Below, piece by piece: positions 20,007-59,413 of a DNA stretch of 64,000 nt. The notes below the pieces were generated by a model, which did not search any database, was not told the DNA's origin, and was given only the letters and a program-made list of their open reading frames with translations. Positions within the stretch are counted from its first letter, which is position 1. Every line of letters starts with the position of its first letter. The stretch comes from Escherichia coli (lineage in GTDB: Bacteria; Pseudomonadota; Gammaproteobacteria; Enterobacterales; Enterobacteriaceae). Both the position numbers and the translations under genes were made by a program. The DNA is taken from the NCBI RefSeq assembly GCF_029227855.1, contig NZ_CP074356.1; one strand, 5' to 3'.

Positions 20007-20900
20007 ATGACGAATTTAAAAGCAGTTATTCCTGTAGCGGGTCTTGGGATGCATATGTTGCCTGCCACTAAGGCGATTCCCAAAGAGATGCTACCCATCG
20101 TCGACAAGCCAATGATTCAGTACATTGTTGACGAGATTGTGGCTGCAGGGATCAAAGAAATCCTCCTGGTAACTCACGCGTCCAAGAACGCGGTCGAAAA
20201 CCACTTCGACACCTCTTATGAATTAGAATCTCTCCTTGAGCAGCGCGTGAAGCGTCAACTGCTTGCGGAAGTGCAGTCCATCTGTCCTCCGGGCGTGACC
20301 ATTATGAACGTGCGTCAGGGCGAACCTTTAGGTTTAGGCCACTCCATTTTATGTGCACGACCTGCTATTGGTGACAACCCATTTGTCGTGGTGCTGCCAG
20401 ACGTTGTGATCGACGACGCGAGTGCCGACCCGCTGCGTTACAACCTTGCTGCCATGATTGCGCGCTTCAACGAAACGGGCCGCAGCCAGGTGCTGGCAAA
20501 ACGTATGCCGGGTGACCTCTCTGAATACTCTGTCATCCAGACCAAAGAGCCGCTGGACCGTGAAGGTAAGGTCAGCCGCATTGTTGAATTTATCGAAAAA
20601 CCAGATCAGCCGCAGACGCTGGACTCAGACATCATGGCCGTTGGCCGCTATGTGCTTTCTGCCGATATTTGGCCGGAGCTAGAACGCACTCAGCCTGGTG
20701 CATGGGGACGTATCCAACTGACAGATGCTATTGCCGAACTGGCGAAAAAACAGTCCGTTGAAGCCATGCTGATGACCGGCGACAGTTACGACTGCGGTAA
20801 AAAAATGGGTTATATGCAAGCGTTCGTGAAGTATGGACTACGCAACCTGAAAGAAGGGGCGAAGTTCCGTAAAGGGATTGAGAAGCTGTTAAGCGAATAA
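20007..20900 (+). CDS. galF: UTP-glucose-1-phosphate uridylyltransferase regulatory subunit GalF
   Basis: 297 aa from [30 protein letters not shown]; matches recalled GalF. Confidence 0.95.
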
Positions 20901-21157: not shown

Positions 21158-21196
21158 CAGTACTCTGGTAGCTGTAAAGCCAGGGGCGGTAGCGTG
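21158..21196 (+). promoter_or_regulatory. JUMPStart element with ops (RfaH-dependent antitermination) upstream of the O-antigen cluster
   Basis: cagtactctggtagctgtaaagccaggggcggtagcgtg contains the ops core GGCGGTAGCGTG at 21185..21196. Confidence 0.85.
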
Positions 21197-21336: not shown

Positions 21337-22362
21337 ATGCTTATTTACAATACAATATTTGTCTTTTTATCATTTCTTGCACTTTTAGATTTAAGTCATA
21401 AAAAAAATTTGTTATTTTTTTTATTTCCTTGTTTTATATTACTACTGTTAACTGCTATTCGTGGTAATGGAGGAGATGATTTTTATGTGTATGAAAAATA
21501 TTTTAACGCTCTTCCTAATGAAATTTTTAACTATGGATATGGTTATTATAGTTTAAATATGTTTGTTAAAAATTTTGGAGAGTATCCTTTTTTTATTATC
21601 ATTTCATCAATAATATGCATAACTCTTCAGGCAATTTTTATTTATCGTGAGACTGAAAAACCAACTCTGGTTTTGTTTTTATTTTATTCAACTAGCTTTT
21701 TATGGTTGGATTTTATTTTAATTAGGCAGTCAATTTCCGTTGGTTTTTTTATTTTGGCAATATCATTTTTCAAAAATAATAAAAAAATTTTTGCCTGTCT
21801 GTTTTTGATTCTATCTTCATTATTTCATGAGACCGCTATTTTTGCTGGAGTAGTTTTTTATATTTTATACAGAGCCGAGAAGGCAGGTTTTCTTTTTACA
21901 ATTGGCTCGGTATTAATTATTGCACCATTTTTATCTGATATAATCACTATCATAAATGATATGACGATAAAAAATAATAATATAACTCTCTATCTGGAGC
22001 AGCGTACCTTACCAAGCATTGCAAATGTAATTGAGTTAACAATAGCATTTGTTGCATTTTATATAATTAATAAAAATTCCGTGTTTAGAGAGAGTAATGA
22101 GTATAAAATATATAAAAGTATACTATATTCTTCACTATGCATACTATTATTGTCTTATACAATCCCATCATTGGCTAGATTCCTAGAATTTTTTCGTTTT
22201 TTTTACTTCATTTTAGTAGTTAGAATGCTAATGCAATTTAATGTGAGAAGTAGATATCTTTTTTTTGTAATTATACTAGCGTACTGTTTTATGAGACTTA
22301 ATAGCTTCATAAATCAATTTGATTCTGGTTTTGATTATATTTATAATGGAAAAATACTGTGA
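21337..22362 (+). CDS. wzy: Putative O-antigen polymerase Wzy (EpsG-like polytopic membrane protein)
   Basis: Very hydrophobic AT-rich ORF; N-terminal RGNGGDDFYVYEKYF resembles the EpsG/Wzy family; ATG at 21337 chosen over the TTG at 21298. Confidence 0.55.
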   Translation: MLIYNTIFVFLSFLALLDLSHKKNLLFFLFPCFILLLLTAIRGNGGDDFYVYEKYFNALPNEIFNYGYGYYSLNMFVKNFGEYPFFIIISSIICITLQAIFIYRETEKPTLVLFLFYSTSFLWLDFILIRQSISVGFFILAISFFKNNKKIFACLFLILSSLFHETAIFAGVVFYILYRAEKAGFLFTIGSVLIIAPFLSDIITIINDMTIKNNNITLYLEQRTLPSIANVIELTIAFVAFYIINKNSVFRESNEYKIYKSILYSSLCILLLSYTIPSLARFLEFFRFFYFILVVRMLMQFNVRSRYLFFVIILAYCFMRLNSFINQFDSGFDYIYNGKIL

Positions 22363-23228
22363 CTATATTATTTTCTGTTATTACTCCTACCTATAATAGG
22401 GCAGATGAGTTAAGCTCATTGTTCAAAAGTCTTAATAATCAAGAGGGTATCGAATTCGAATGGGTGATAATTGATGATGGTTCTGAAGATCATACACAAC
22501 AACAAGTTAATGACTTCAAAAAACATAATAAAAACATCACAGATATAAAATATTTTTATCAAGAGAATAAAGGTAAAAATTCTGCTGTAATTAGAGGGAT
22601 TCAGAATGCTTCCGGCGATTATATTGTGGTGATTGATAGCGATGATTATTTATTGGATGATGCTTTAATAAGAGTAAAAAATATATTAGATGAAGAGAGT
22701 GTTAATGGCGATGATAAAATAATTGGCATTTCAGGTGTTAAAGTTAAAAGTGATTTCACACCTGTAAGTTATATTAGCAACTCTTCGGCATTGCGAATGA
22801 GTCATTATGAGTGGTTTTATAAGTTTCAGCGGTTAGGTGATCGGATTGACTTTTATAAAGCCCGAGTGCTTAAAGAGAAAATATTTAATGCATTTCCAAA
22901 GGAAAAGTTTATTACAGAAGACGCATATTGGTTGGACCTCGTTGGGGAAAAAATTTTCATAAATGAACCGTTATTAGTAATAAAATATTTAGAGGGAGGG
23001 CTTAGTTCAAGTTACTCATTACTCCTGCGAAACAGTCCTTTTGGAACATCATATTATTATTATATTCTATTAATTAATGCTGATAATTTTAAAACAAAAC
23101 TTAAAGCATCATTATTGATGATGTACTATATATTTGTTACCATATTAAAAAATAGTAATATAGTAATTGGGTTATTGTCACTCATGTTATTTCCAATCTT
23201 ATGTATAATAAAATTCTTTCGAAGCTAA
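22359..23228 (+). CDS. Glycosyltransferase family 2 (O-antigen)
   Basis: 289 aa; SVITPTYNRADEL and DSDD motifs typical of GT2; GTG start overlapping the wzy stop. Confidence 0.75.
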   Translation: MTILFSVITPTYNRADELSSLFKSLNNQEGIEFEWVIIDDGSEDHTQQQVNDFKKHNKNITDIKYFYQENKGKNSAVIRGIQNASGDYIVVIDSDDYLLDDALIRVKNILDEESVNGDDKIIGISGVKVKSDFTPVSYISNSSALRMSHYEWFYKFQRLGDRIDFYKARVLKEKIFNAFPKEKFITEDAYWLDLVGEKIFINEPLLVIKYLEGGLSSSYSLLLRNSPFGTSYYYYILLINADNFKTKLKASLLMMYYIFVTILKNSNIVIGLLSLMLFPILCIIKFFRS

Positions 23229-24406
23229 GAAACACTATTCTTCCTTGTTTCACTCTAGGAACGTCGACGATTTTTTTCTTTGCGATAGGTTTCTTCTTTG
23301 GTATAAATGAAAAATCTGATTTTATATTATTTACGATTACTTTACTTTCAACCATTGGAACTATTCTTCAAATTTCTTGGTATGGATTGTTACCTCGTTT
23401 GAGTTCGAGTTCAAGCTTAAAATTTTTAGGTTATATTATTTCTAATGGTTTTATCTACTGTTTGATCATAAATACCCTACCATTTGTGATTTTAACTCTG
23501 AACTTTACAAACTTTTTTTTTGCAGGGTGTCTCTACTCTTTATTTTTCCAACTGCATCAGTATCTTAAGAATGTTTTTGTTTATCTTGGGCGGCTTAAAG
23601 CATTTTATATTTTTGATGCCATCGGCTATGCCATATGTGTTATAAGTATTACTGTGTTCCAAAAATATCTATTACATTCAAACCCTCAGGATTTATTTGT
23701 TCTGCTTTCGTTATGTTGGCTTTTAATAGTAATTGGTGAGGTCGTACATCTTAAACTATATATTAATTATGACATATCTGTAAAGCCTGTTTATGTATGT
23801 ATTATTCCAACATGGAAAACAAGGATTGCAAACAGTGGTTTTATTGTGAAAGATCTTTTAACTGCGTATGCGCTTAATATACTTGCGCCGGTAGGCGGTT
23901 TAACTATATATTCATACGCAAGTAAGATTTCAACAGCTGTTTTTCAATTATTCTCTCAATATAAAGTAAATGCTTGGGTGGGCAGCATAAGAAAAAAAAG
24001 GTTAAGTGAAGTAGAATACGGTGATATAAAAAAAGTGTCATTATCTTCTTCAATTGATTTTTGTATTTTTCAGATCGTTGCATGGCTTTGTATCTTACCT
24101 ATTATATTATATAATGGCACAAATATAAATATTGAATGGTATGTATTAAGTATTATTACTGGTGGATTACTATACTTGATACAATCAATGGAACAGCCTT
24201 ATGCTAGATTTATTTATATGTCACGACATTTTACCGATATTGCCATCGCAGATGGAATAAATTTTATTATTTATATGGTTTTCTTTTCATATGGATTGTT
24301 AATGTTAAATGTATATTATCTATTTTTAGGTATTATATTAGCTCAATTATGTTCACTAGTTACTTATTCTTTATTTTGCAAGAGGTTGTTTAGGAATGAT
24401 ACCTAA
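23201..24406 (+). CDS. wzx: Putative O-antigen flippase Wzx (polytopic membrane protein)
   Basis: 401 aa hydrophobic ORF with many predicted TM segments; position within O-antigen cluster; the Wzx/Wzy assignment between the two membrane proteins is inference. Confidence 0.5.
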   Translation: MYNKILSKLRNTILPCFTLGTSTIFFFAIGFFFGINEKSDFILFTITLLSTIGTILQISWYGLLPRLSSSSSLKFLGYIISNGFIYCLIINTLPFVILTLNFTNFFFAGCLYSLFFQLHQYLKNVFVYLGRLKAFYIFDAIGYAICVISITVFQKYLLHSNPQDLFVLLSLCWLLIVIGEVVHLKLYINYDISVKPVYVCIIPTWKTRIANSGFIVKDLLTAYALNILAPVGGLTIYSYASKISTAVFQLFSQYKVNAWVGSIRKKRLSEVEYGDIKKVSLSSSIDFCIFQIVAWLCILPIILYNGTNINIEWYVLSIITGGLLYLIQSMEQPYARFIYMSRHFTDIAIADGINFIIYMVFFSYGLLMLNVYYLFLGIILAQLCSLVTYSLFCKRLFRNDT

Positions 24407-25052
24407 AATAATACATTACTGTTGGTTCGGGGGCGGGGATAAACCTGCTTTAGTTAAAAAATGTATGGGGACATGGGAAAAAGTCTTGCCTGGTTGGGAT
24501 ATTATTGAATGGAACGAAGATAATTCGCCAGTATCAGTTCCTTATGTAAAAAATGCGTTAGAAGATAAACGATATGCATTTGCTGCTGATTATGTAAGAT
24601 TCTATGCGCTAAAAACCATGGGAGGAGTTTATCTTGATACTGATATGGAATTGATCAAAGATATTTCTCCGCTTTTGAATAATAAATTCTTTACAGCGAA
24701 AGAATCAGAGGAGCTTATTAATGCAGCAATAATGGGGAGTGAAAAAGATGGGAGATTTGTCAATTTAGTAATCCAAGAATTACAATTGCGCACAGGACAT
24801 ACTTACGAATCTATACCAAAAATACTTACTGATATATTTAATACAGGAAATGGATTTAAAGATGAAACAACCATTTATGATAAGGAATATTTTTATCCTT
24901 ATAATCCCTTTGATAATAAACGAAATGAAGTTAAACAACTTTTCTATTGTGATATAACTCCTCATACTTATGCCATTCATCACTGGCAACAAAGTTGGCA
25001 CTATACATTTCTTGAACGGGTTATTAACAGAATAAGGATGCTTATAAAGTGA
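24396..25052 (+). CDS. Glycosyltransferase, GT32-like sugar-binding family (DXD motif)
   Basis: 218 aa; IIHYCWFGG N-terminus and YLDTDME motif. Confidence 0.7.
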   Translation: MIPKIIHYCWFGGGDKPALVKKCMGTWEKVLPGWDIIEWNEDNSPVSVPYVKNALEDKRYAFAADYVRFYALKTMGGVYLDTDMELIKDISPLLNNKFFTAKESEELINAAIMGSEKDGRFVNLVIQELQLRTGHTYESIPKILTDIFNTGNGFKDETTIYDKEYFYPYNPFDNKRNEVKQLFYCDITPHTYAIHHWQQSWHYTFLERVINRIRMLIK

Positions 25053-25819
25053 GTGGAAATAAATTAATAAGCATAATTATGGCATCAAATAAAATAGATG
25101 AGTTTCTACCTCTGGCAATAAACTCAATTCTTGAACAAACATATCAAAATATCGAAGTGATTTTTGTTGCTAATGGTGATAAAGCTCACTGTATTAGTTT
25201 GTATATAAAAAATTTTTTTAAAGATGAGCGAATCAAAATTTATGAAACACCAATAGGCCAACTATCACATGCGCTTAACCTCGCTATTTCTAACGCATCG
25301 GGTGATTATATTGCCCGCATGGATGCTGATGACATTAGTTTACCTGAGCGATTAACTAAACAGTTGGAATATTTAAGGTCACATAATTTAGATATGGTAG
25401 GTTCGGATATAATTCACATAGATACAAATGGAGAAGTTATTGGGATTAAACATTATCCCAAAGGGTTAAATAAAATTAACAAACAATTGTATTTTAGGAA
25501 TACTTTTTCGCATAGCACTATACTAATCAAAAAAAAAATACTCATTTCAGCGAGAGGCTACAATGCTGGATTTAATTCAGAGGACTATGATCTCTGGTTA
25601 AGATTAAGACGGAAGAATATCAAATGGGATAATATGGAGGAATGCCTCTTAAAATATCGTATACATAGTGCATCTACACAAAGGAAGAGATTGGGTTACG
25701 CCGAAGTCGCGGGTTATTCTCTACGTGAATTTTTATTACGTTTCTCATTTATTGGTATTTTTTCTGTTTTAATTCATATTGTTAAAGTTTATATTAAATC
25801 ATCTTCTCATGAAGAATGA
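25049..25819 (+). CDS. Glycosyltransferase family 2 (O-antigen)
   Basis: 256 aa; GT2-like N-terminus and DADD motif; GTG start overlapping the upstream stop. Confidence 0.7.
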   Translation: MSGNKLISIIMASNKIDEFLPLAINSILEQTYQNIEVIFVANGDKAHCISLYIKNFFKDERIKIYETPIGQLSHALNLAISNASGDYIARMDADDISLPERLTKQLEYLRSHNLDMVGSDIIHIDTNGEVIGIKHYPKGLNKINKQLYFRNTFSHSTILIKKKILISARGYNAGFNSEDYDLWLRLRRKNIKWDNMEECLLKYRIHSASTQRKRLGYAEVAGYSLREFLLRFSFIGIFSVLIHIVKVYIKSSSHEE

Positions 25820-26010
25820 TTTATATTTTAGGATAATTAACTATTTAAATTAGAATCATTTGAGCAAACTTAGGTAACTCTATATAATACACAGCATTGC
25901 AAATGAGTAACATATTGGAATAGCCATTCAATGGTAATATTACAAATTGCTTTAATAATAATGGATCATTTAGCTATGGTGCAATATTTTCTTCTTGCGG
26001 AATTTTACCC

Positions 26011-27129
26011 ATGAAAATACTTCTAATAGGAAACCTCTCTGATACTATTGTATTATTCAGAGAGAAGTTAATAAGAGAGTTGATTAAAAAAAATATCACG
26101 GTTTATACATTAACGATGGATTCTAATCAAGAAAACTTCAACATCATTGCCAGCTACGGGGCCAAACCTGATTCATACTCTTTTTCTCGTTCAGGTACAA
26201 ATCCTTTTTCTGATATTTGGGATACATACAAATTAAATAAAAAAATAAAAAAAATAAAACCTGACGTTGTTCTTTCTTTTTTTCCAAAACCTGTTATTTA
26301 TGGTTCTTTAGCTGCTAAAATAGCAGGGGTGAAAAAAATATTTAGTCTCTTGGAAGGACTTGGTTTTTGCTATACGAATAATTCTAGTCCAATTAGTCTC
26401 AAAAGGAAGATATTAAAATGTATACAAACAATGCTATACAGAATTAGCTTGCCATTATGTAATAAAGTTTTTTTCTTAAACAAGGATGATTTTAATGATC
26501 TCATTATTGATAATAAAATAACCATAAAGAATTATGAAATAATTGGTGGAATTGGTGTTAATTTAGAAGAGTACAGTTATAAGCAACCAAAGATTGATAA
26601 AATACATTTTGGGATGGTTTCGCGATTACTAGTCGAGAAAGGTATTCGCGAATTTGTTTTGGCCGCGAGCCAGGTGAAAAAAAAATTTCCTGAGGTCGAA
26701 TTTAGTATTGCTGGCGCAATTGATGATAATCCTGGTGGTATAACCGAAGATGAGATAAAAAAATGGGAATCAGAGGGGGTTGTCAAATTTTTAGGTCAAG
26801 TTTCTAATGTTAAAAGTTATTTATCTAATATCTCTGTTTTCGTTTTGCCATCTTACCGAGAAGGCGTACCAAGAAGTACTCAAGAAGCGATGGCTATTGG
26901 GCTTCCAATAATTACAACTAATGTTCCTGGTTGTCGTGATACAATTATCAATATGGTAAATGGAATCATGATCCCACCATTTGATATTCAGTCTCTAGCG
27001 GACGCAATGGTATTTTTTATACAAAACCCTCAGAGTATAACAATAATGGGTAGAGAAAGTAGAATAATTGCAGAGAAAAAGTTTAATGAAATAGAAGCCG
27101 CGAATAAATTACTTAAATTAATAATCTAA
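26011..27129 (+). CDS. Glycosyltransferase family 4 (GT-B fold, O-antigen)
   Basis: 372 aa; C-terminal EGVPRSTQEAMAIGLPII resembles the GT4 EX7E region. Confidence 0.75.
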   Translation: MKILLIGNLSDTIVLFREKLIRELIKKNITVYTLTMDSNQENFNIIASYGAKPDSYSFSRSGTNPFSDIWDTYKLNKKIKKIKPDVVLSFFPKPVIYGSLAAKIAGVKKIFSLLEGLGFCYTNNSSPISLKRKILKCIQTMLYRISLPLCNKVFFLNKDDFNDLIIDNKITIKNYEIIGGIGVNLEEYSYKQPKIDKIHFGMVSRLLVEKGIREFVLAASQVKKKFPEVEFSIAGAIDDNPGGITEDEIKKWESEGVVKFLGQVSNVKSYLSNISVFVLPSYREGVPRSTQEAMAIGLPIITTNVPGCRDTIINMVNGIMIPPFDIQSLADAMVFFIQNPQSITIMGRESRIIAEKKFNEIEAANKLLKLII

Positions 27130-27159: not shown

Positions 27160-28179
27160 ATGGCTATTCTTGTTACTGGCGGAGTTGGTTATATCGCTTC
27201 GCACACTATTATAACTTTACTAGAAAAAGGTGAAGAAGTTATAATACTTGATAATTTATCAAATTCATTCTACGAATCTTTGCATAAAGTTAAAAAAATT
27301 ACCGGGTATGATAGTCGATTTTATAGAGGTGATATACTTGACAAAGAGCTCTTACGCAAAATATTCAAAGAAAACACTATTTCTGACGTAATTCATTTTG
27401 CAGGCTATAAATCTGTAAAAGAATCCATTTCTCACCCATTGAAATACTATCAAAATAACGTTTCTGGTACATTGTCATTAATAGATGCGATGGGGGAGGC
27501 TTGTGTAAAAAGTTTGATTTTTAGCTCATCAGCTACAGTATATGGTGAACCAGAAAGAATACCTTTAGATGAAAATTGCAGAATTGGAGGTACAACGAAT
27601 CCATACGGCACGTCCAAGTTATTCGTAGAAAAATTCCTTATTGATTATTCACATGCATTCCCTGATTTTAGAACTACCATCTTAAGATATTTCAACCCTG
27701 TCGGTGCTCATCCATCTGGTGAAATAGGGGAAGATCCCAATGGTATACCTAACAACTTAATGCCATATATATGTCAAGTTGCTATAGGGAAGCAACAACA
27801 CCTCACTATCTTTGGTAGCGATTATCCAACAAAAGATGGTACAGGTGTTCGTGATTATATCCATGTCATGGATCTTGCTGAAGGGCATGTTGCAGCGTTA
27901 GAACATCGAAATGAAGGAGCAAATTGCAAGATCTATAATCTCGGGACGGGCACAGGATACTCAGTACTGGAACTTGTTGATGCATTTCAAAGAGTTACTG
28001 CACGTAAAGTTCCATATGTATTCAGTAAACGACGACCTGGTGATATTGCTGAGTGTTGGTCTGATCCTTCTAAGGCTTATAGGGAACTTGGATGGAAAGC
28101 GAAGCGTGGGTTGGAAGAAATGGTTCGAGATGCCTGGAATTGGCAACAAAAGAATCCGAACGGTTATATAAAAGCATGA
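27160..28179 (+). CDS. gne: UDP-hexose 4-epimerase of the GalE/Gne family (likely UDP-GlcNAc/UDP-Glc 4-epimerase)
   Basis: 339 aa; Rossmann GGVGYIASH, catalytic YGTSK motif; located immediately upstream of gnd. Confidence 0.85.
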   Translation: MAILVTGGVGYIASHTIITLLEKGEEVIILDNLSNSFYESLHKVKKITGYDSRFYRGDILDKELLRKIFKENTISDVIHFAGYKSVKESISHPLKYYQNNVSGTLSLIDAMGEACVKSLIFSSSATVYGEPERIPLDENCRIGGTTNPYGTSKLFVEKFLIDYSHAFPDFRTTILRYFNPVGAHPSGEIGEDPNGIPNNLMPYICQVAIGKQQHLTIFGSDYPTKDGTGVRDYIHVMDLAEGHVAALEHRNEGANCKIYNLGTGTGYSVLELVDAFQRVTARKVPYVFSKRRPGDIAECWSDPSKAYRELGWKAKRGLEEMVRDAWNWQQKNPNGYIKA

Positions 28180-28297: not shown

Positions 28298-29704
28298 ATG
28301 TCAAAGCAACAGATCGGCGTAGTCGGTATGGCAGTGATGGGGCGCAACCTTGCGCTCAACATCGAAAGCCGTGGTTATACCGTCTCTATTTTCAACCGTT
28401 CCCGTGAGAAGACGGAAGAAGTGATTGCCGAAAATCCAGGCAAGAAACTGGTTCCTTACTATACGGTGAAAGAGTTTGTTGAATCTCTGGAAACGCCTCG
28501 TCGCATCCTGTTAATGGTGAAAGCAGGTGCAGGCACGGATGCTGCTATTGATTCCCTCAAGCCGTACCTCGATAAAGGTGACATCATCATTGATGGTGGT
28601 AACACCTTCTTCCAGGACACCATTCGTCGTAACCGTGAGCTTTCTTCAGAAGGCTTTAACTTCATCGGTACCGGTGTCTCCGGTGGTGAAGAAGGTGCGC
28701 TGAAAGGTCCTTCCATTATGCCTGGTGGGCAGAAAGAAGCCTATGAACTGGTAGCGCCGATCCTGACCAAAATCGCCGCAGTAGCTGAAGACGGAGAGCC
28801 ATGCGTTACCTATATTGGTGCCGATGGTGCAGGTCACTATGTGAAGATGGTTCACAACGGTATTGAATACGGTGATATGCAACTGATTGCTGAAGCCTAT
28901 TCTCTCCTGAAAGGCGGCCTGAATCTCTCTAACGAAGAACTGGCACAGACCTTTACCGAGTGGAATAACGGTGAACTGAGTAGCTATCTGATCGACATCA
29001 CCAAAGATATCTTCACCAAAAAAGATGAAGACGGTAACTACCTGGTTGATGTGATCCTGGATGAAGCAGCAAACAAAGGTACGGGCAAATGGACCAGCCA
29101 GAGCGCGCTGGATCTCGGCGAACCACTGTCTCTGATTACCGAGTCTGTGTTTGCACGTTATATCTCTTCTCTGAAAGATCAGCGCGTTGCCGCATCTAAA
29201 GTTCTTTCTGGTCCGCAAGCGCAGCCGGCAGGCGACAAAGCTGAGTTCATTGAAAAAGTTCGCCGTGCGCTGTATCTGGGCAAAATCGTTTCTTACGCTC
29301 AGGGCTTTTCTCAGCTACGCGCCGCGTCTGAAGAGTACAATTGGGATCTGAACTACGGCGAAATCGCGAAGATTTTCCGTGCTGGTTGCATCATCCGTGC
29401 GCAGTTCCTGCAGAAAATCACCGATGCATATTCCGAAAACCCGCAGATCGCTAACCTGCTGCTGGCTCCGTACTTCAAGCAAATTGCCGATGACTACCAG
29501 CAGGCGCTGCGTGATGTCGTTGCTTATGCGGTACAGAACGGTATCCCGGTTCCGACCTTCGCCGCTGCGGTTGCCTATTATGACAGCTACCGTGCTGCTG
29601 TTCTGCCTGCGAATCTGATCCAGGCTCAGCGTGACTATTTTGGTGCGCATACTTATAAGCGCATTGATAAAGAAGGTGTGTTCCATACTGAATGGCTGGA
29701 TTAA
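28298..29704 (+). CDS. gnd: 6-phosphogluconate dehydrogenase, decarboxylating
   Basis: 468 aa; [28 protein letters not shown]-terminus; matches recalled Gnd. Confidence 0.97.
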
Positions 29705-29729: not shown

Positions 29730-29760
29730 GGCCCGGCGTATATTACGCCGGGCTTTTTTG
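29730..29760 (+). terminator. Rho-independent terminator downstream of gnd
   Basis: gcccggcg tatatta cgccgggc stem-loop followed by a run of six T. Confidence 0.8.
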
Positions 29761-30470
29761 TGCACAGAAAACCCCCAGCTAGGCTGGGGGTTCCGGAAAG
29801 CTTTCAGCTTTGAGCCAGTTATTAAAACCCCTTTTGATTTGTTAAAACACTTTGCGGTCTGGCAACTGCAAGTGTCAAACAAGAAATCAAAAGGGGGTCC
29901 CAATGGGGAACGAAAAGAGCTTAGCGCACACCCGATGGAACTGTAAATATCACATAGTTTTTGCGCCAAAATACCGAAGACAGGTGTTCTACAGAGAGAA
30001 GCGTAGAGCAATAGGCAGTATTTTGAGAAAGCTGTGTGAGTGGAAAAGCGTACGGATTCTGGAAGCTGAATGCTGTGCAGATCATATCCATATGCTTGTG
30101 GAGATCCCGCCCAAAATGAGCGTATCCGGCTTTATGGGATATCTGAAAGGGAAAAGCAGTCTGATGCTTTACGAGCAGTTTGGTGATTTGAAATTCAAAT
30201 ACAGGAACAGGGAGTTCTGGTGCAGAGGGTACTACGTCGATACGGTGGGTAAGAACACGGCGAAGATACAGGATTACATAAAGCACCAGCTTGAAGAGGA
30301 TAAAATGGGAGAGCAGTTATCGATTCCCTATCCGGGCAGCCCGTTTACGGGCCGTAAGTAACGAAGTTGGATGCAAATGTCAGATCGTGTGCGCCTGTTA
30401 GGGCGCGGCTGGTAAGAGAGCCTTATAGGCGCATTTGAAAAACCTCCGGCTATGCCGGAGGATATTTATT
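29761..30470 (+). mobile_element. IS200-type insertion sequence (IS200/IS605 family), boundaries approximate
   Basis: About 0.7 kb with a single Y1 HUH transposase ORF; left-end hairpin acccccagctaggctggggg and right-end hairpin cctccggctatgccggagg; no terminal inverted repeats, as expected for IS200. Confidence 0.75.
29903..30361 (+). CDS. tnpA: IS200 transposase TnpA (Y1 HUH)
   Basis: 152 aa from MGNEKSLAHTRWNCKYHIVFAPKYRRQVFY; HIHMLVEIPP (HUH) motif; essentially the recalled Salmonella IS200 TnpA. Confidence 0.92.
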   Translation: MGNEKSLAHTRWNCKYHIVFAPKYRRQVFYREKRRAIGSILRKLCEWKSVRILEAECCADHIHMLVEIPPKMSVSGFMGYLKGKSSLMLYEQFGDLKFKYRNREFWCRGYYVDTVGKNTAKIQDYIKHQLEEDKMGEQLSIPYPGSPFTGRK

Positions 30471-40564: not shown

Positions 40565-40816
40565 ATGCGTACAATTAGCTACAGCGAAGCGCGTCAGAAT
40601 TTGTCGGCAACAATGATGAAAGCCGTTGAAGATCATGCCCCGATCCTTATTACTCGTCAGAATGGAGAGGCTTGTGTTCTGATGTCACTCGAAGAATACA
40701 ACTCGCTGGAAGAGACGGCTTATCTACTGCGCTCCCCCGCTAACGCCCGGAGATTGATGGACTCAATCGATAGCCTGAAATCAGGCAAAGGAACGGAAAA
40801 GGACATTATTGAGTGA
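40565..40816 (+). CDS. yefM: Antitoxin YefM (type II TA system)
   Basis: 83 aa; [55 protein letters not shown]. Confidence 0.95.
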
Positions 40817-41067
40817 AACTAATCTGGTCTGAGGAGTCATGGGATGATTATCTGTACTGGCAGGAAACAGATAAGCGAATTGTTAAAAAGATCATTGAAC
40901 TTATCAAAGATACCCGCAGAACACCATTTGAAGGTAAGGGGAAGCCAGAACCCCTGAAGCATAATTTGTCAGGCTTCTGGTCCCGACGCATTACAGAGGA
41001 GCACCGTCTGGTATACGCGGTTACCGACGATTCACTGCTCATTGCAGCATGTCGTTATCATTATTGA
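40813..41067 (+). CDS. yoeB: Toxin YoeB (ribosome-dependent mRNA interferase)
   Basis: 84 aa; start overlaps the yefM stop; C-terminal HRLVYAV...YHY. Confidence 0.95.
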
Positions 41068-51346: not shown

Positions 51347-51790
51347 TTAGCGACAGCCTTCTTCTGTATGCAGCAAGGCAAAAAGTTCTGCAACTCCATT
51401 GTTATTAACCGCACTGGTTACTAACACATTGTGCGCTCCAGCTTCCCGTAACCAACTTTTCACCAAAGATATTTGTTCCATGCTGGCTAAATCTGCTTTG
51501 GTGACTACTCCAATGACCGGGCGATTCATTGACGAGGTAAAGCCTGGCGAAAAAGGGGACCACGGTGCGTCCGCATTAAGCACCAGGGCGATAATGTCCG
51601 CTTCGCAGGCGCTGACCAACAGAGCACTGTAGAGGCTGCGGTTTTCGAGGTATTCGCCTGGTGTATCAATGGTGGTCGGGGACCAGACGATTGCCTGCGT
51701 TTTCTGATAATGAATATTTTCGCCACGCAGACATTGCGTGAGTGACGTTTTTCCGCACTGGCTGGGGCCGATGAGCATCATACGTTGCAT
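51347..51790 (-). CDS. pduV: PduV, EutP/PduV-family small GTPase associated with the Pdu microcompartment
   Basis: 147 aa; P-loop [10 protein letters not shown]; matches recalled Salmonella PduV. Confidence 0.88.
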
Positions 51791-51794
51791 AACG

Positions 51795-52145
51795 TCAGGT
51801 CCGCGTAATGGGGCAGGCGGTAAAGCGCATCATTTCACCCAGCGTACGGGTAACCTGGCTAAGTGCATATTCAATGGCAGAAACATCACCAGTCAGCACT
51901 ACGGCACCGGTAAAACGATCAAGAAAACCGATCTCTACAGCGCCTGATTTTGTGGCGATATCACATGCGATGATAGATGCTTCGCTGGGGGTAATTGTCA
52001 GAATGCCAATAGCAGAAACGGTGTCTGGTAAACCCAATTTCTTAAACAGATCCTTCCCTGGATTGGCGATGACATGTGCCAGCGTGACCTGCTTACCAGG
52101 GACATATTCCTGAATCATCCGTTCAGTTGTGTGCTGAGTTGTCAT
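51795..52145 (-). CDS. pduU: PduU, BMC shell protein (circularly permuted BMC domain)
   Basis: 116 aa from [32 protein letters not shown]; near-identical to recalled Salmonella PduU. Confidence 0.9.
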
Positions 52146-52699
52146 TATCCCTCCACCATCTGACGCCACATGGCTTCATGTGGACGGGCAATCACCGACC
52201 GATAGACCAACAAACCTTTTTCTCCCGCACGCTCGCTGGCGACAGAGACCGCGTTATTAACATCTGAAATATCGCCAGCAACCACCATGTAGCATTTACC
52301 GCCAATGCCAAAAGCCATATGCACGCGAACAAGAATGACATTCGCAGCTTTGACAGCACAATCGGCAGCGTCAATGCAGGCGGCGACACTCCAGGTTTCG
52401 ACTACGCCGACAGCCCGGTGCTGTTCAACTTGGTTCAGTCCGCTGGTTGCAGAAAGGAGGCTGGGATGAATATTCGGCAGGACAAGACTGTCGACCAGCA
52501 TTTCACCAGCAAGGGAAGCACCGCTGTTGATGGCCTGTTGCACCGCGCCCACATCGCCACCGAGCATCAGCAGAAATTTTCCGGGGCATAGCGTTTTGCT
52601 GACCAGTAACTCAACGTTGGCGCTTTTCAGCATGGCGTCGCCGGTTTCCATCCCTTTCGCGATACTGCTAAGTTCTAAAATACCTACCGCTTTCGACAT
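52145..52699 (-). CDS. pduT: PduT, tandem-BMC-domain shell protein
   Basis: 184 aa with two BMC domains; [29 protein letters not shown]. Confidence 0.9.
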
Positions 52700-52701
52700 C
52701 G

Positions 52702-54045
52702 TTAACCTCTCACAAGCGTAATCGCGTTTTCTGTCACATCGCTGACCATGCCATCAATACTGGCATGAATGGGGGCACCTAATGTGCCGTGTGGAATTTG
52801 ACCTACACATTGCCCATGAACGACGCGATCGCCTTTTTGTACACACGCAATTGCGCTGGCACCGATGTGCTGGCGTAACAATAACGTCACTTTTTCGGTC
52901 TGAGGCACCTGTTCAGACAATGGCGCATCCTGATACCACGGGGTTAAGCCAAGTCTGGTTACCAGCCGTTTTACGGGAATCAGTCGATAATTTGCCATGG
53001 GATCTGCAGGATTTAAGGTACCTTCGTAACGGAGATTTTGTGCGCGTAATTCTTGCTTAAGCAGGCGGTTTATGCGCATTGGTGAAATTCCTACCGGACA
53101 GGCGACGCTGGCGCAGACGTTGCACTCCGAACAGGTGAGCGCCGTCAGTAACAGTTGTGGCGTAGCGAGCTGTTGGTAGTTAACCGCACGTACTAATAAA
53201 TGGGGTGCCAGTTCGTGACCGATTAAATGACGTGGGCAGAGATCGGTACACAAGCGGCATTGCTCACAAACAGTTTTCGCGACGGCAAGTACGCTGCGGT
53301 CATTCTGCATTCGACGTTGGATCAGTGAATGAGAGTTGGGTAAAACCAGCAAGCCGCCAGTGGTTTTGCTGACTGGTGTGTCGAGCGATGTGATCAAACT
53401 TCCCATCATCGGCCCGCCATTGATAAAACCAGGAGCATCCACTGTTGCGCCGCCCGCCAGCGCCAGGACTTCACGTAAAGACATGCCGATGGGGACGGTT
53501 ACCGTTATTGGTTTCGCCACTGCACCATTAACGGTGAGTGTGCGGCGCGTCACTGGATACTGTTGCTCGACGGCTCTGGCAATATTAAGTACGGTTTGAA
53601 CATTATTGACCACCACACCGACGTTAACGGGTAATGCAGCGGGTGGAACACGGCGACCAGTTGCCATCCAGATGGTCAGCACTTCGTCTCCTGCGGGGTA
53701 AACGTCGGGCAAAATATGCAGGCGGATATCCGGTGGTAACAGTGGTGTGAGTGCGTTTATTGCCCGTTGATATTTCTCTTTCAGCGCGATGATTCCGCTA
53801 CTGGCCCCGGTGGCTTTCATCGCATAGTGAACACCGCGAAGCAGGCGGCTGGCTTGCTGCGCCATTAACTGTTGATCCACTTTCAACATTGGTTCGCATT
53901 CCGCCGCATTCACCAGGAACGTGTCAACACGCGCTTGTAGCTTAATATGGGTTGGGAAACCTGCGCCGCCAGCACCCACGACACCAGCTGCCTGTACTCG
54001 CTCGCGGATGGTCTGGTCGTCGCAGGAGGTTAACTCGACGTTCAT
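52702..54045 (-). CDS. pduS: PduS, cobalamin reductase (RnfC/NuoF-like flavoprotein with two 4Fe-4S motifs)
   Basis: 447 aa; GAGGAGFP nucleotide-binding motif; Cys clusters [12 protein letters not shown] and [13 protein letters not shown]. Confidence 0.9.
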
Positions 54046-55154
54046 AACAACTCCTCGAGCAGTTCTGCAATAGCGGTGGCATCAGCCGTACGCGGGTTGG
54101 TACGCAACGTTGCATCCGCCAGTGCCGCCTGAACCATATCTGGTATGCGTATTGACCATTCTGCTTTTTTTTCTTTCAGCACATTGGTAAGAGTCGGTAG
54201 CTTACAGGTTGTTTTAAGCTGTTCAATATGTTGAATAAGTATATTCAGGCTGGCGGTGTCATTGGCGTTGTCCGGGCATAAATGGCACGTTTTCGCCAGC
54301 CGGGCGTAGCGTTTGGCAGCGCGCGGATCGCCAGCATTAAAGCGGATAACCGCCGTGAGCAGGAGCGCATTCGCCAGGCCGTGTGGCAGATGAAACTGTC
54401 CGCCGAGTTGATGAGCAATTGCATGGTTTAATCCCAGTCCAGCTTGGCTAAAGGCCATTCCTGCAAGTGTCGATGCATTATGCATTTTGCCACGGGTGGC
54501 GAGACAATCGCCTTTCTTCACTGCAGTGGGCAGGTATTGAAAAACAATTTGCACGGCTTTTTCGACCAGTGCATCCGTGAAGTCGCTGGCGCGGGGAGAA
54601 ACATAAGCTTCAAGCGCATGGGTTAAAACATCCATCCCGGTATTGGCCGTTATCGCCGGTGGCACGCTGACGATCAGAGATGGATCAAGGATCGCGATAT
54701 CCGGATAAAGTGCATTATCGAAAAGGGGATATTTAATCCCTTTCTCAGGATCGCTGATGACACAAGCACTGGTCACTTCGGAACCGGTACCGCTGGTGGT
54801 AGGAATGGCTACGCAGGTTTCAATTTCAATGCCACACTGGCGACCGAACCAGACAATCGCTTTTGCGGCGTCCAGGGCAGAACCGCCGCCAAAACCGATA
54901 ACCACATCCGGGCGTAAAGTCTGCATTTGCGCAATGCCTTTCACCACGGTCTGGATAGTTGGGTCGGGCGTTATTTCGCTAAAAATACTAAGACGATTAC
55001 TGTCGGGCAGCGCCTGATGCAACGTGTTAATGAGTGGTGAGCGTGCCAGAAAGACGTCGCAAATAATCCAGATGTGTTTATGAGAGAAACGGCTAAGTAC
55101 CTTGAGACTTCCCGGTCCGCTGTATAAACGCGTCTGCAGTGAAAAAGTATTCAT
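54042..55154 (-). CDS. pduQ: PduQ, iron-containing 1-propanol dehydrogenase
   Basis: 370 aa; Fe-ADH family glycine-rich region GFGGGSALDAAKA. Confidence 0.9.
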   Translation of the reverse strand: MNTFSLQTRLYSGPGSLKVLSRFSHKHIWIICDVFLARSPLINTLHQALPDSNRLSIFSEITPDPTIQTVVKGIAQMQTLRPDVVIGFGGGSALDAAKAIVWFGRQCGIEIETCVAIPTTSGTGSEVTSACVISDPEKGIKYPLFDNALYPDIAILDPSLIVSVPPAITANTGMDVLTHALEAYVSPRASDFTDALVEKAVQIVFQYLPTAVKKGDCLATRGKMHNASTLAGMAFSQAGLGLNHAIAHQLGGQFHLPHGLANALLLTAVIRFNAGDPRAAKRYARLAKTCHLCPDNANDTASLNILIQHIEQLKTTCKLPTLTNVLKEKKAEWSIRIPDMVQAALADATLRTNPRTADATAIAELLEELL

Positions 55155-55164
55155 TTCCGTTTCT

Positions 55165-56550
55165 CTAGCGAATTGAAAAGCCGCTGGTTAACACGCAGCG
55201 TCGTGAGCGGGCAAAAGTCCGTGCTGACGTTGTCCCTTCTCCGGTCGGTGTTGCAATGGTAAAGGTCGTAAAGCCTTCGCCGCCGACGCCAATACCCGCC
55301 CAGGAGGGGCCGTTTTTGACAAAGATTGAGGTTTGCATAACGCGTGCGGTAAGGTTGAGCCGTGAGACGTTCTGCGAGTGCATAATTGCCGTGTGGTGCA
55401 AGCCGTCTTCCACTTTCAGCGCCAGGGTGAGAGCGCTATCAAAATCGTTGACCTTCACAATGGGCAGCATTGGCATCAGTTGTTCACAAGTAACCCAACT
55501 ATCATTGGCGTCGACAACAGCAATCAGTAGGCGCGGCGCTTTTGCGGGCAAAGGGAGGCCTGCCGCTTCCAGCAAGGCTGATGGGCTTTTCCCAACCAGT
55601 TTTTTGTTGGCGCTACCGTCTGGCAGGCAAATTGCACGCAATTTCTCCGTTTGCTCATAGTTAAGAAGAAGCGCGCCAAAACTTTGCATCTGCTGAATTA
55701 AATAATCTGCCACTGATGCCACGACAATCAGGCTTTTTTCAGCAATACACGGCAGGTTGTAATCAAATGAAGCGCCGTTGATGATGTCCTCGGCGGCTTT
55801 CACAATATCCGCCGTTTCATCGACGATGCACGGAGGGTTACCCGCTCCGGCACCAATCACTTTCTTGCCACTTTTCATTCCCATGGCGACGATCCCCGGA
55901 CCGCCGGTAATCGCCAGAACGCTGATTTTAGGGTGCGCCATCATCTGTTCGGTTGCAGCAAAGGTCGGTTCAGATACGGTAACGATCAGGTTATGAATGC
56001 CACTACAACGAAACGCGATGTCTTCGATTGTGGTAATCAGTTTTAACGAAACGTATTTGGCTCCCGGGTGTGGACTGAAGTAGACGCTATTACCTGCTGC
56101 CAGCATGCTGATGCTGTTGTTAATGATGGTTTCCGTGGGGTTGGTGCTTGGCGTGACCGAGCCAATAACCCCAAACGGGGAGTATTCAAACAAAACCATG
56201 CCACCATCACCGGTTAGTGCAGTGGTGGTTAAATCTTCAATTCCTGGCGTGTTATCAAGTGCCGCTTTGTTTTTTAGGTACTTATCTTCTTTATTTCCCA
56301 TCCCCGTTTCTTTGGCGCTTTCTTCTGCCAGTTCGGTCAGGCGGGGTATTAATTCTTCGCGAATGGCGCTGATAATGGCGCTACGGGTTTTAAGCGGGCA
56401 CTGTTGAAAGCGTAAAAAGGCCTGGTGTGCTGCGCAGACCGCTTCATCAACAGTCTGGAAAATAGCGTTTCTTTGCATTCGTTGCGTAGCGGGGGCAAGC
56501 TGCTCACGCAGAATATTGCGGATCAGTGTTTCTAATTCAGAGTTATTCAT
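55165..56550 (-). CDS. pduP: PduP, CoA-acylating propionaldehyde dehydrogenase
   Basis: 461 aa aldehyde dehydrogenase with N-terminal amphipathic extension MNNSELETLIRNILREQL. Confidence 0.92.
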   Translation of the reverse strand: MNNSELETLIRNILREQLAPATQRMQRNAIFQTVDEAVCAAHQAFLRFQQCPLKTRSAIISAIREELIPRLTELAEESAKETGMGNKEDKYLKNKAALDNTPGIEDLTTTALTGDGGMVLFEYSPFGVIGSVTPSTNPTETIINNSISMLAAGNSVYFSPHPGAKYVSLKLITTIEDIAFRCSGIHNLIVTVSEPTFAATEQMMAHPKISVLAITGGPGIVAMGMKSGKKVIGAGAGNPPCIVDETADIVKAAEDIINGASFDYNLPCIAEKSLIVVASVADYLIQQMQSFGALLLNYEQTEKLRAICLPDGSANKKLVGKSPSALLEAAGLPLPAKAPRLLIAVVDANDSWVTCEQLMPMLPIVKVNDFDSALTLALKVEDGLHHTAIMHSQNVSRLNLTARVMQTSIFVKNGPSWAGIGVGGEGFTTFTIATPTGEGTTSARTFARSRRCVLTSGFSIR

Positions 56551-57554
56551 TGGTTTACTCCCACGTTAATTGCCGCCATTGCGCTTTGGGCAATATCCAT
56601 GTCTTGTTCAACGCTACCACCGCTGATGCCAAGCCCCCCGAGCAATATTCCGTCACGCCAGAGGGGGAAGCCGCCACCAAAGGTGACGACTTTGCCTTGC
56701 ATATGGCTTTCGAGCCCGTAAAGCGGCGCGCCGGGTTGCACGGTATCAGCAAGTTTGTGGGTTGCCGTTTTCATCGCCACGGCAGTCCAGGCTTTTTTCG
56801 GTGCCAGTTCACTGCTGACCAACAGGGCATCAGGCATCCGCCAGGTAACACTTTCTGTTCCGTTGGCATCAACAATGCTGATGACAACGGGAATATGCAG
56901 TTCATCCGCGCGCATTGCCGCACTACGAATGAGCTGGTGAAGATCCTGAAAAGTGAGCGGCATTGTGCGTTCCTTCAATGCTGGTGTGTGGTTGGCTTTG
57001 TGATAACGTTTTGTGATTTCCTGAATTATCAGGTTTTGATGAGCGACGTTGTCTTCCACGCGGGCGAGGGCATACAGGCAATCGGAAAGTCGGTTGATAT
57101 AGTGCAGCAAAACATTCCGGACGGTGATTTCCGTTGTCAGTTCAACCAGACGTCTTTCAGCACGTCGAGCCACCGTGCGGGCGAAATGCATACGGCTTGC
57201 AGCTTCACATCGCCCAGGCAGAATGAAGCTGTGAACTGGGGGGACGGCGTTCATTGCGCTATCGATCGCGTTTTCCAGCGCGGCAATTTCTTCCGTACCG
57301 ATGTAACGCAGCTGCGCTGACGGCTGTTCGCTTTCACTGGCAAGTTCGGCGCTAAACCAAAATATCTGTTGTTGAATGGCTTCCAGTAAGATGCGATGGC
57401 TTTCGATGGCGGTGGCGCAATAACACAGACTGAGTGTCGCGTTCAGTTCATCCAGCGTGCCATAGGTTTCGACACGTAGATGAGTTTTGCTGACGCGCTG
57501 TCCGGTAAATAAAGACGTACTTCCTGAATCACCTGTTCGGGTATAAATTGCCAT
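56547..57554 (-). CDS. pduO: PduO, ATP:cob(I)alamin adenosyltransferase with C-terminal DUF336 domain
   Basis: 335 aa; MAIYTRTGDSGSTSLFTGQRVSK N-terminus typical of PduO-type ATR. Confidence 0.92.
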   Translation of the reverse strand: MAIYTRTGDSGSTSLFTGQRVSKTHLRVETYGTLDELNATLSLCYCATAIESHRILLEAIQQQIFWFSAELASESEQPSAQLRYIGTEEIAALENAIDSAMNAVPPVHSFILPGRCEAASRMHFARTVARRAERRLVELTTEITVRNVLLHYINRLSDCLYALARVEDNVAHQNLIIQEITKRYHKANHTPALKERTMPLTFQDLHQLIRSAAMRADELHIPVVISIVDANGTESVTWRMPDALLVSSELAPKKAWTAVAMKTATHKLADTVQPGAPLYGLESHMQGKVVTFGGGFPLWRDGILLGGLGISGGSVEQDMDIAQSAMAAINVGVNQ

Positions 57555-57565
57555 CTTTCAGCTCC

Positions 57566-57841
57566 TTAGCGCGAAAGCGTATCGACAATGCCGACCACTG
57601 CCAGGTCGATGGCCTCGTTAGGGCCGGAAAACACATGTCTGGCGCTGGAACCACTGCTGAGGAGTACCAACTCACCAACGCCTGCGCCGACTGAATCAAC
57701 GGCAACTTCGTCGCCGGTTAATGGCGTGAGAGGCAGTTCGCCGTCAGCACTGACCCGGCGAACCAGCAGCAGTTTTTTCCCGATCAGAGATGGTGATTTT
57801 TGCGTGGATACTACCGCGCCAGTGACTCGAGCCAGATGCAT
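57566..57841 (-). CDS. pduN: PduN, BMC vertex (pentamer) protein of the EutN/CcmL family
   Basis: 91 aa; [17 protein letters not shown]. Confidence 0.9.
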
Positions 57842-57844
57842 AGG

Positions 57845-58336
57845 TTACTCCTGCCTAATTAACTGAATATTTCGGGTAATTGCCGCTTCACGAGCCAGTG
57901 CGGTCACACAACATTTCCGCTGTAACACCAGTATTCCCGAGCTTAACTGTGCGATATCGGCATAACTTAAAAGTCGATCACGATGAAGGTAGATCGGTTG
58001 CCCTTGTTCGTCGCACCAGCTTAGCGGTAGACGGGCGAGAGTCTTCAATTCAATGGCGTTCAGGAAATGACGCTGCAACGACAATTGAATGTGCATTCCC
58101 CAGGCTAACGCTTCGTGTATCTGGATTGCTGCTCGATCTGACGTTTCGTTCTCCGCAAGTTGTCGCAGCAGCGGCAGATCGACATATCGGATTTGTAATG
58201 ACGCATACTGATGAACGCTCTCTTGAACGCTGGCGTCTCGCAGTTGAAAAACAGTCAGCACGAGTGCTTTTCTCGCACGTTGTTTAAGGCGAAAAACCAC
58301 CTCGTCAACAATACGTTGCATCAGCATGTTATTCAT
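57845..58336 (-). CDS. pduM: PduM, microcompartment structural protein
   Basis: 163 aa; position between pduL and pduN; length matches recalled Salmonella PduM. Confidence 0.8.
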   Translation of the reverse strand: MNNMLMQRIVDEVVFRLKQRARKALVLTVFQLRDASVQESVHQYASLQIRYVDLPLLRQLAENETSDRAAIQIHEALAWGMHIQLSLQRHFLNAIELKTLARLPLSWCDEQGQPIYLHRDRLLSYADIAQLSSGILVLQRKCCVTALAREAAITRNIQLIRQE

Positions 58337-58965
58337 GGCACTGACACCAGTGTGGCAAAAACGTCAGGGCTATCAGCGCCTGCGGCGTTGGCCTCATCGG
58401 TATCAATATGCATTTCAAGACGCATATCCGGAGAGACGCGAACAGCGACGTTTTCGAATATCAGTCGTCGCTCACCACCTTCAATGGCAACCGCCACTTT
58501 ATCGCCATGCGTAACGCCATAAATCAGGGCATCCAGCGGAGACATATGAATATGCCGTTGCGCGACAATGACGCCAGATGTGATCTCCAGTTCCGCAAAT
58601 GGGCTTATCAAACGAATCCCCGGAGTGCCGCTGAGATCGCCTGACATGCGTAGCGGGGCGGTGATCCCTAACGTTCTGGCGTCCGTCCGGGAAATTTCCA
58701 CCTGGCTTGCATTGCGTAGCGGCCCCAACAAGCGAACGTTGTGCAATTTGCCTTTTGGTCCCTCCAGCGTAACAACCTGTTCAGCAGCGAATTGGCCAGG
58801 TTGCATTAACGGCTTTTTCTCGCTAATCGGTTGTTCAGGAAAAAGACGCAAATAATCCGCTGTTGAAAGATGAATATGGCGACTGGAAACGCCCAGTGGG
58901 ATAGGGCGCTCGCGCATCTCATCCAGAATCTGGCTCACTGTTTCCTGCAGGGTTTGTTTATCCAC
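58333..58965 (-). CDS. pduL: PduL, phosphate propanoyltransferase
   Basis: 210 aa; N-terminal MDKQTLQETVSQILDEM amphipathic peptide followed by PduL/EutD-type domain. Confidence 0.9.
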   Translation of the reverse strand: MDKQTLQETVSQILDEMRERPIPLGVSSRHIHLSTADYLRLFPEQPISEKKPLMQPGQFAAEQVVTLEGPKGKLHNVRLLGPLRNASQVEISRTDARTLGITAPLRMSGDLSGTPGIRLISPFAELEITSGVIVAQRHIHMSPLDALIYGVTHGDKVAVAIEGGERRLIFENVAVRVSPDMRLEMHIDTDEANAAGADSPDVFATLVSVP

Positions 58966-58967
58966 TG

Positions 58968-59390: not shown

Positions 59391-59413
59391 GCTGTGCTCC
59401 TTAGCGAATGGGG

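Follow-up and report, generated by a model that had tools for sequence, protein, structure and literature searches.

Overlapping genes and start codons of the O23 cluster

Four consecutive genes of an O-antigen operon in Escherichia coli begin inside the end of the gene preceding them, two of them with GTG, and this arrangement raises the question whether the overlaps are real, whether they couple the translation of the genes, and whether they explain why the genes are inherited together. The genes are located in a stretch of 64,000 nt (NCBI RefSeq assembly GCF_029227855.1, contig NZ_CP074356.1), referred to here as the window. Five genes are involved: wzy for the O-antigen polymerase, GT2a for a family-2 glycosyltransferase (GT), wzx for the predicted flippase of the O unit, GT32 for a family-32 glycosyltransferase, and GT2b for a second enzyme of family 2. 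The overlaps comprise 4 nt between wzy and GT2a (GTGA, 22359-22362), 28 nt between GT2a and wzx (23201-23228), 11 nt between wzx and GT32 (24396-24406), and again 4 nt between GT32 and GT2b (GTGA, 25049-25052). A previous sequence-only reading had derived from them tight translational coupling and co-inheritance of the block. Taken as a whole, it appears probable that the genes belong to the known O23 operon, that their overlaps are genuine and likely to confer partial coupling, and that the architecture is an ordinary one.

Between positions 21200 and 26100 (4.9 kb), the window is 100% identical at the nucleotide level to a dozen complete E. coli genomes, in which RefSeq names the products of wzy and wzx 'O23 family O-antigen polymerase' and 'O23 family O-antigen flippase', respectively. 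The starts and coordinates of the RefSeq/PGAP annotation in these genomes are those of the sequence-only reading, and the four overlaps are borne out by this annotation as well as by the structure of the open reading frames (ORFs). The cluster sits between galF (20007-20900) and gnd (28298-29704), behind a JUMPStart/ops leader, and has the order wzy, GT2a, wzx, GT32, GT2b, a spacer of 191 nt, GT4, and gne/galE. By these matches, the block between galF and gnd corresponds to the core of the known Wzx/Wzy-dependent O-antigen cluster of E. coli O23. For E. coli, complete sets of O-antigen gene clusters have been published (Iguchi et al. 2015, PMC4379981; DebRoy et al. 2016, PMC4732683). Sequence, gene order, annotated starts and galF-gnd position are identical in the window and in the known cluster, and no difference was detected within the region of the overlaps.

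If the true starts were ATG codons located downstream, the overlaps would simply be annotation artefacts. An in-frame ATG is indeed present at 25079, 30 nt into GT2b (residue 11), 8 of 120 GT2b homologues are called from this internal methionine, and one record of Citrobacter freundii (L006) calls wzx 33 nt further downstream. Against such starts stand the ORFs, the Pfam domain boundaries, the N-termini of homologues and the DNA of orthologues; N-termini and start codons of the latter were compared in nine further lineages. In GT2a, GTG at 22359 is the sole ATG, GTG or TTG that follows the in-frame stop (22344-22346) ahead of the GT2 domain with its conserved SVITPTYN, and position 1 of the PF00535 profile falls on residue 6. 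In GT2b, GTG at 25049 is the first start past the in-frame stop at 25025-25027. The PF00535 domain begins at residue 7-9 (profile position 3 at residue 9), and use of the next ATG, the one at 25079, would cut off the first beta-strand. This strand, ISxxM, located upstream of the internal methionine, is kept in 112 of the 120 homologues, and close relatives have 6-7 residues ahead of it, as in E. coli. The wzx ATG and the N-terminus M(Y/L/F)xKI(I/L)xK are conserved across the orthologous clusters of several genera, and reading of the E. coli sequence revealed no further ATG, GTG or TTG before about codon 63. All orthologues of GT32 share the N-terminus MIPKIIHYCWFG, beginning with residue 1.

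The DNA of the orthologues points to the same starts. At the position of the first E. coli GTGA, ATGA is found in C. freundii and Salmonella, a difference that goes back to the use of CTA or CTG, which are synonymous, as the last codon of wzy. At the GT32/GT2b junction, GTGA is also present in C. freundii and Salmonella and is replaced by ATGA in C. portucalensis; in Morganella, where wzx is the upstream neighbour, GT2b has ATG at the same codon. Since each GTG of E. coli aligns with ATG in at least one orthologue and usable downstream starts are absent, the alignments, which could have pointed to downstream ATG codons that remove the overlaps, favour the annotated starts instead. Downstream ATG starts were rejected for all four genes, and mis-called starts can be considered effectively refuted as an explanation. 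Both GTG starts and all four overlaps are genuine. For wzy, the longest ORF begins with TTG at 21298, but the N-termini of orthologues (MLIYN...) and RefSeq favour ATG at 21337. With GTG serving as start codon in about one seventh of all E. coli genes, two GTG starts among seven genes are unremarkable.

Ribosome-binding sites and possible translational coupling

The JUMPStart element is located 141 nt upstream of wzy and, together with the ops site, would mark the leader of an operon of the usual RfaH-dependent type. Neither promoter-like sites (38 versus 42.7 expected from shuffled sequences) nor terminator-like sites (2 versus 3.0) are in excess across the cluster. Internal promoters or terminators splitting the block were rejected on these counts, which are at or below the shuffle expectation, and because of the missing excess of both kinds of sites we infer a single transcript.

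The five genes differ considerably in their Shine-Dalgarno (SD) sites, as judged from pairing energies with the 16S tail. No motif precedes wzy (+1.7 kcal/mol) and wzx (+1.5 kcal/mol), and GT2a has a weak TGGA (-3.3 kcal/mol). Both GT32 (AAGAGG at 24380-24385, -6.5 kcal/mol) and GT2b (TAAGGA at 25033-25038, -6.0 kcal/mol) carry a motif at a distance of 10 nt. The background of the cluster is -1.6 ± 2.7 kcal/mol, and approximately 6% of the positions reach -6.0 kcal/mol. Across nine lineages, GT32 and GT2b usually have an SD site and wzx has none in any of the nine (all values -0.9 kcal/mol or weaker). The starts of wzy and wzx are located in the least structured 60-nt segments of the cluster (-0.9 and -1.9 kcal/mol; 96th-98th percentile).

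Distances between the genes, negative values denoting overlaps, drift among the lineages. Values of -4, -4, -4, 0, +3, +1, +2, -14 and -17 nt were obtained for wzy/GT2a, of -11, -11, -4, -4, -11, +18, -4 and -20 nt for wzx/GT32, and of -4 nt (six lineages) and 0 nt for GT32/GT2b. In all nine lineages wzx abuts or overlaps GT2a (-28, -4 or +2 nt). All junctions of the block are within -28 to +18 nt in all lineages.

A mechanism consistent with these data would be the following. The five genes from wzy to GT2b, packed in such a way that start codons lie inside the end of the preceding gene, would be read as a single low-GC unit from the RfaH-dependent JUMPStart/ops leader. Ribosomes ending one gene could re-initiate at the adjacent start or open it up, which would result in partial translational coupling. 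Coupling would weigh most for wzx, without an SD site in any lineage, and also for GT2a with its GTG and weak SD site; GT32 and GT2b, having SD sites of their own, would probably initiate independently as well.

Four out of five native 4-nt overlaps in E. coli were found to be translationally coupled (Huber et al. 2019, PMC6728339), and termination-reinitiation is documented for distances of -8 to +6 nt (Huber et al. 2023, PMC10666635). The junctions wzy/GT2a and GT32/GT2b are co-directional overlaps of the 1-, 4- or 8-nt class; those of 11 and 28 nt are outside. Compared with the coupled ATGA/GTGA pairs trpBA, hyfHI, astDB and menDH (PMC6728339, PMC10666635), the two GTGA junctions have the same -4 nt geometry, an SD site inside the upstream gene (weak in the case of GT2a; such sites are usual but not obligatory in coupled pairs), and co-directional genes in one operon. 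The O23 block differs from these pairs by its 11- and 28-nt junctions, which are not within -8 to +6 nt, by coupling being presumed, and by products that are no known subunits of a stoichiometric complex. By analogy to the tested pairs, coupling is likely at the two GTGA junctions, and for wzx it would be a plausible and reasonable route to any translation at all. The tight coupling suggested in the sequence-only reading is reasonable as a deduction from the overlaps, but only partly supported: GT32 and GT2b could initiate independently from their own SD sites, one of the five tested 4-nt pairs is uncoupled, and overlaps of 11 and 28 nt are beyond the documented range of reinitiation.

Alternatively, the overlaps could be neutral by-products of compaction and of stop/start drift in AT-rich DNA, each gene initiating alone, via an SD site (GT32, GT2b) or via an unstructured A/U-rich region (wzy, wzx), and without meaningful coupling. 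A number of observations weigh against coupling and fit this alternative. The SD sites of GT32 and GT2b, although of moderate strength, are in the top 6% or so of the cluster background, and the unstructured starts of wzy and wzx would favour independent initiation without SD. From lineage to lineage, the junctions shift freely within -28 to +18 nt, and overlap lengths vary at depth (-11, -4, -20 and +18 nt at wzx/GT32; -28, -4 and +2 nt at GT2a/wzx). The synonymous CTA/CTG change in wzy is sufficient to toggle GT2a between ATG and GTG, and overlaps are common in neighbouring operons. Furthermore, the efficiency of reinitiation drops steeply with distance and overlaps of more than 8 nt are rare (PMC10666635), and bioBF is uncoupled despite a 4-nt overlap (PMC6728339). 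On the other hand, distances within the block never exceed +18 nt compared to 46-349 nt at the next junction, which suggests selection for adjacency. The -4 nt geometry of GT32/GT2b is present in six of the seven lineages with that junction, wzx is devoid of an SD site everywhere and yet must be expressed, and the majority of the tested 4-nt pairs mentioned above is coupled. Overall, purely neutral overlaps are considered rather unlikely, and a known operon with partial coupling is the preferred explanation.

The 28-nt overlap of GT2a and wzx

Six lineages share the longest overlap, with an unchanged ATG and length: E. coli, C. freundii, Salmonella, C. portucalensis, Morganella, and a Morganella-like metagenomic contig. 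In an alignment of five lineages, the mean pairwise nucleotide identity is 84% within the 28 nt versus 57% upstream and 65% downstream, as a constraint acting on two reading frames would predict. Among the more distant members, three lineages have -4 nt at this junction, and +2 nt also occurs.

The start of wzx precedes the GT2a stop by 25 nt. Translation of wzx might depend entirely on ribosomes that, having terminated at GT2a, move back to the wzx ATG. This arrangement would be a cellular counterpart of the coat-lysis layout of phage fr, in which the overlap is 34 nt and for which a scanning model of reinitiation was put forward (Adhin and van Duin 1990, as summarised in PMC10666635), and it would fix a low ratio of Wzx to the glycosyltransferases. 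The likeness consists of a start without SD upstream of the GT2a stop, to which a ribosome would have to go backwards. The difference is that wzx belongs to a cellular operon and that its unstructured A/U-rich start makes direct initiation possible. Such an exclusive dependence of wzx on GT2a is regarded as doubtful.

Inheritance of the five-gene block

Clusters with the same gene families and order are present in C. freundii, C. portucalensis and Salmonella enterica (galF-gnd) and in Morganella morganii (next to cpxRA). In the Enterobacteriaceae, the orthologous clusters show 49-78% protein identity to E. coli, with the GT2a/wzx overlap identical in length. For the five genes the identities are fairly even, 64-78% in C. 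freundii and 55-71% in Salmonella. In contrast to E. coli, GT2a starts with ATG in the orthologous clusters. Salmonella and C. portucalensis have a wzx/GT32 overlap of 4 nt where E. coli has 11 nt, C. portucalensis and Morganella carry a non-orthologous GT4, and in Morganella GT32 is located behind GT4. Besides the window, loci L005, L008-L010, L013 and L015-L017 contain members of the Wzx family. The arrangement wzy-GT2a-wzx-GT32-GT2b followed by a spacer is kept even in contigs whose Wzx is only 24-30% identical, and the same gene order was detected in a metagenome-assembled genome of the betaproteobacterium Aromatoleum, in which the module has a GC content of 52%. One short contig (L017) covers just GT2a-wzx-GT32.

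It could be imagined that the overlaps act as a physical lock, interpenetrating coding regions barring recombination and thereby enforcing inheritance as a unit. The five overlapped genes do occur together in all lineages with this gene order, and in C. portucalensis GT4, which follows the 191-nt spacer, has given way to another GT4 with 26% identity. However, the order is also kept where overlaps are missing, with +18 and 0 nt in Aromatoleum, +2 nt in a JGI contig, +2 nt in L015, and 0 nt in C. portucalensis. Morganella-type clusters have excised GT32 from between wzx and GT2b, relocated it behind GT4 and formed a new wzx/GT2b overlap of 8 or 4 nt, and in strains of the ETEC1720 type an IS1 deletion ends inside wzx. 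A functional account is simpler: the enzymes share the task of building one O unit, which is processed by a matched Wzx and Wzy. A lock is therefore held to be very unlikely. Since the order persists where the junctions are gaps (0, +2, +18 nt) and GT32 was moved in Morganella, the overlaps do not explain the linkage. Of the co-inheritance claimed in the sequence-only reading, the conservation of the block across lineages was confirmed, but the unit is wider, consisting of five genes with wzy included, and the overlaps are not its cause. From these comparisons, the five-gene block including wzy is an old unit, in which adjacency is conserved and the particular overlaps are not.

In the porcine enterotoxigenic E. 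coli ETEC1720 (L004, NZ_CP122859, 6288-8013), an O23-like cluster with 97.9% identity was found. In this cluster, the IS1 element has deleted galF, wzy and GT2a together with the 3' end of wcaM and ~190 nt at the start of wzx; in addition, GT4 is broken into fragments. ETEC1722 and ETEC1739 have the same match breakpoint, the flanks having been read in ETEC1720 only. Strains of this type are presumably rough or O-non-typeable. No other E. coli serogroup sharing part of the block as a mosaic was detected; the only partial matches were ETEC1720, ETEC1722 and ETEC1739, with the IS1 deletion in ETEC1720, and this possibility was rejected. In one Salmonella enterica assembly (GCA_900456225.1; L007, 1999-4310), two ORFs take the place of galF and only a 197-aa fragment of wzy is called; both genes are intact in a second Salmonella assembly (L008). 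The cluster of the first assembly is either degraded or affected by sequencing errors.

The spacer between GT2b and GT4

The packed block is followed by an AT-rich spacer (25820-26010). An alignment across four genera yielded a mean column identity of 51% without any conserved block, and no Rfam match was obtained for the spacer. A functional element within these 191 nt was rejected, as there is neither conservation nor an Rfam match and promoter-like sites occur at chance level. In other lineages with the E. coli gene order, the junction is occupied by a spacer of 46-349 nt. The gene behind it, GT4, is orthologous in C. freundii (72%) and Salmonella (62%), whereas C. portucalensis and Morganella contain a GT4 of 26-27% identity in its place. 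The spacer would mark the boundary of the packed five-gene block and, together with the swapped GT4, looks like a module boundary and recombination point.

Overlaps in other operons

To judge how common such junctions are, overlaps in the his, wca and pdu operons were counted in closely related O23 genomes collinear with the window. In the his operon, six consecutive junctions overlap (7, 19, 1, 1, 1 and 4 nt). Overlaps were also found at 4 of 16 junctions in the wca cluster, one of them of 26 nt, and at 5 of 17 junctions in the pdu operon, one of 11 nt. A second GTGA overlap of 4 nt, that of yefM and yoeB, is present within the window itself. In general, no spacing of unidirectional gene pairs is nearly as common as -4 nt, and in E. 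coli 24% of such pairs have a distance between -8 and +6 nt (PMC10666635). In most groups of prokaryotes, about 15% of the gene pairs are co-directional and overlap (PMC6728339). Four consecutive overlaps therefore represent ordinary tight operon packing and no special device. The locus as well as the pattern of overlaps, GTGA motifs and presumed coupling is already known, the latter as textbook features of operons.

Features of the cluster and of the window

The features of the cluster are listed in Table 1. Pfam gathering scores are 23.3 bits for PF00535 and 23 bits for PF04488 (DXD sugar-binding region), the match to the latter spanning residues 17-96 of GT32. The GC content is 26-33% across the cluster, and no ORF of at least 80 aa was detected on the minus strand between 21.3 and 27.1 kb.

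Table 1 Features of the O23 cluster and a further overlapping gene pair in the window
Feature	Position	Strand	Size	Start	Basis
JUMPStart with ops site GGCGGTAGCGTG (ops 21185-21196)	21158-21196	+			Rfam RF01707, 60 bits (gathering score 35), E 5e-12; ops match exact
wzy, O23 O-antigen polymerase, EpsG family	21337-22362	+	341 aa	ATG, no SD	PF14897, E 7e-36; RefSeq
GT2a, family-2 glycosyltransferase	22359-23228	+	289 aa	GTG within GTGA	PF00535, 96.9 bits
wzx, predicted O-unit flippase	23201-24406	+	401 aa	ATG, no SD	RefSeq name; fold match to WzxE
GT32, family-32 glycosyltransferase	24396-25052	+	218 aa	ATG	PF04488, 48.2 bits
GT2b, second family-2 glycosyltransferase	25049-25819	+	256 aa	GTG within GTGA	PF00535, 82.8 bits
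AT-rich spacer	25820-26010	.	191 nt		Non-conserved in alignment
GT4-family glycosyltransferase	26011-27129	+	372 aa	ATG	PF00534 and PF13692
galE/gne, UDP-hexose 4-epimerase, last cluster gene before gnd	27160-28179	+		ATG	RefSeq annotation
yefM/yoeB, toxin-antitoxin pair	40565-41067			GTG of yoeB within GTGA (4-nt overlap)	

According to a review, the initial sugar of O23 is N-acetylglucosamine and gne is present in the O23 cluster (PMC7685785). Four glycosyltransferases together with WecA would fit an O unit of five sugars. A search of the literature yielded neither the structure of the O23 repeat unit nor the name of a serogroup of Salmonella or Citrobacter to which the orthologous clusters belong.

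The window contains, in this order, the wca (colanic-acid) cluster, galF, the O-antigen cluster, gnd, ugd, wzzB, the his operon and, further on, the pdu operon. Apart from the ops site in the leader, GGCGGTAG was found at 9782 and 63478. These three matches, compared with 1.28 expected, are at chance level (13 of 100 shuffled sequences reach three), and the additional sites were rejected as ops sites.

When set against CP019256 and GMF065, the two O23 genomes closest to it in the comparison, the strain of the window differs only outside the cluster. An IS200-like insertion of 706 bp between gnd and ugd (29759-30465) is absent from both; its ORF (29852-30361) belongs to the Y1 transposase family (PF01797, E 5e-38), and the Hfq-binding RNA STnc490 of Rfam matches at 29770-29893 with 144.6 bits. 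The yefM-yoeB pair, located between the his leader and yeeZ, is likewise missing from both genomes, which have about 217 bp at this site instead of 659 bp. Behind tmaR, from ~51500 to 64000, the pdu (propanediol-utilisation) microcompartment operon is located on the minus strand, and it is present in GMF065 at 99% identity. In strain 13TMH22, this operon is replaced by CP4-44-type prophage remnants, insertion sequence (IS) elements and cob genes.

The flippase family and significance of the locus

No match to Pfam or NCBIfam was obtained for wzx even at E = 10, 11 family members having been searched, and no sequence match was found in the PDB. Among 1.84 billion representative proteins (clusters), only nine matches were detected. 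A structure modelled by AlphaFold2 (pLDDT 84.7, pTM 0.81) is all-helical. The best Foldseek match of this model is WzxE (9g9n; E 2e-7, TM 0.69), followed by MurJ and MATE transporters. The predicted structure thus has the MOP transporter fold, for which about 12 transmembrane helices are characteristic; profiles of the Polysacc_synt or MOP families do not match, and the identification is by fold comparison alone. By its modelled fold, the O23 protein would be a real Wzx, and the searches place it in a small family of flippases that appear to be orphans at the sequence level. Two genes upstream of wzx, an EpsG-family wzy is present in every lineage except the short L017 contig.

For the locus as such, the overlaps are of little significance beyond annotation quality: the RefSeq starts of the O23 cluster, including both GTG codons, were checked and are right. 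The GT2a/wzx junction, as the only mildly novel residue of the analysis, would provide a clean native test case for reinitiation across a long overlap. The Wzx family, in Enterobacterales as well as in a betaproteobacterium, is embedded in the same wzy-GT2-wzx-GT32-GT2 module wherever the contig is of sufficient length to show it.

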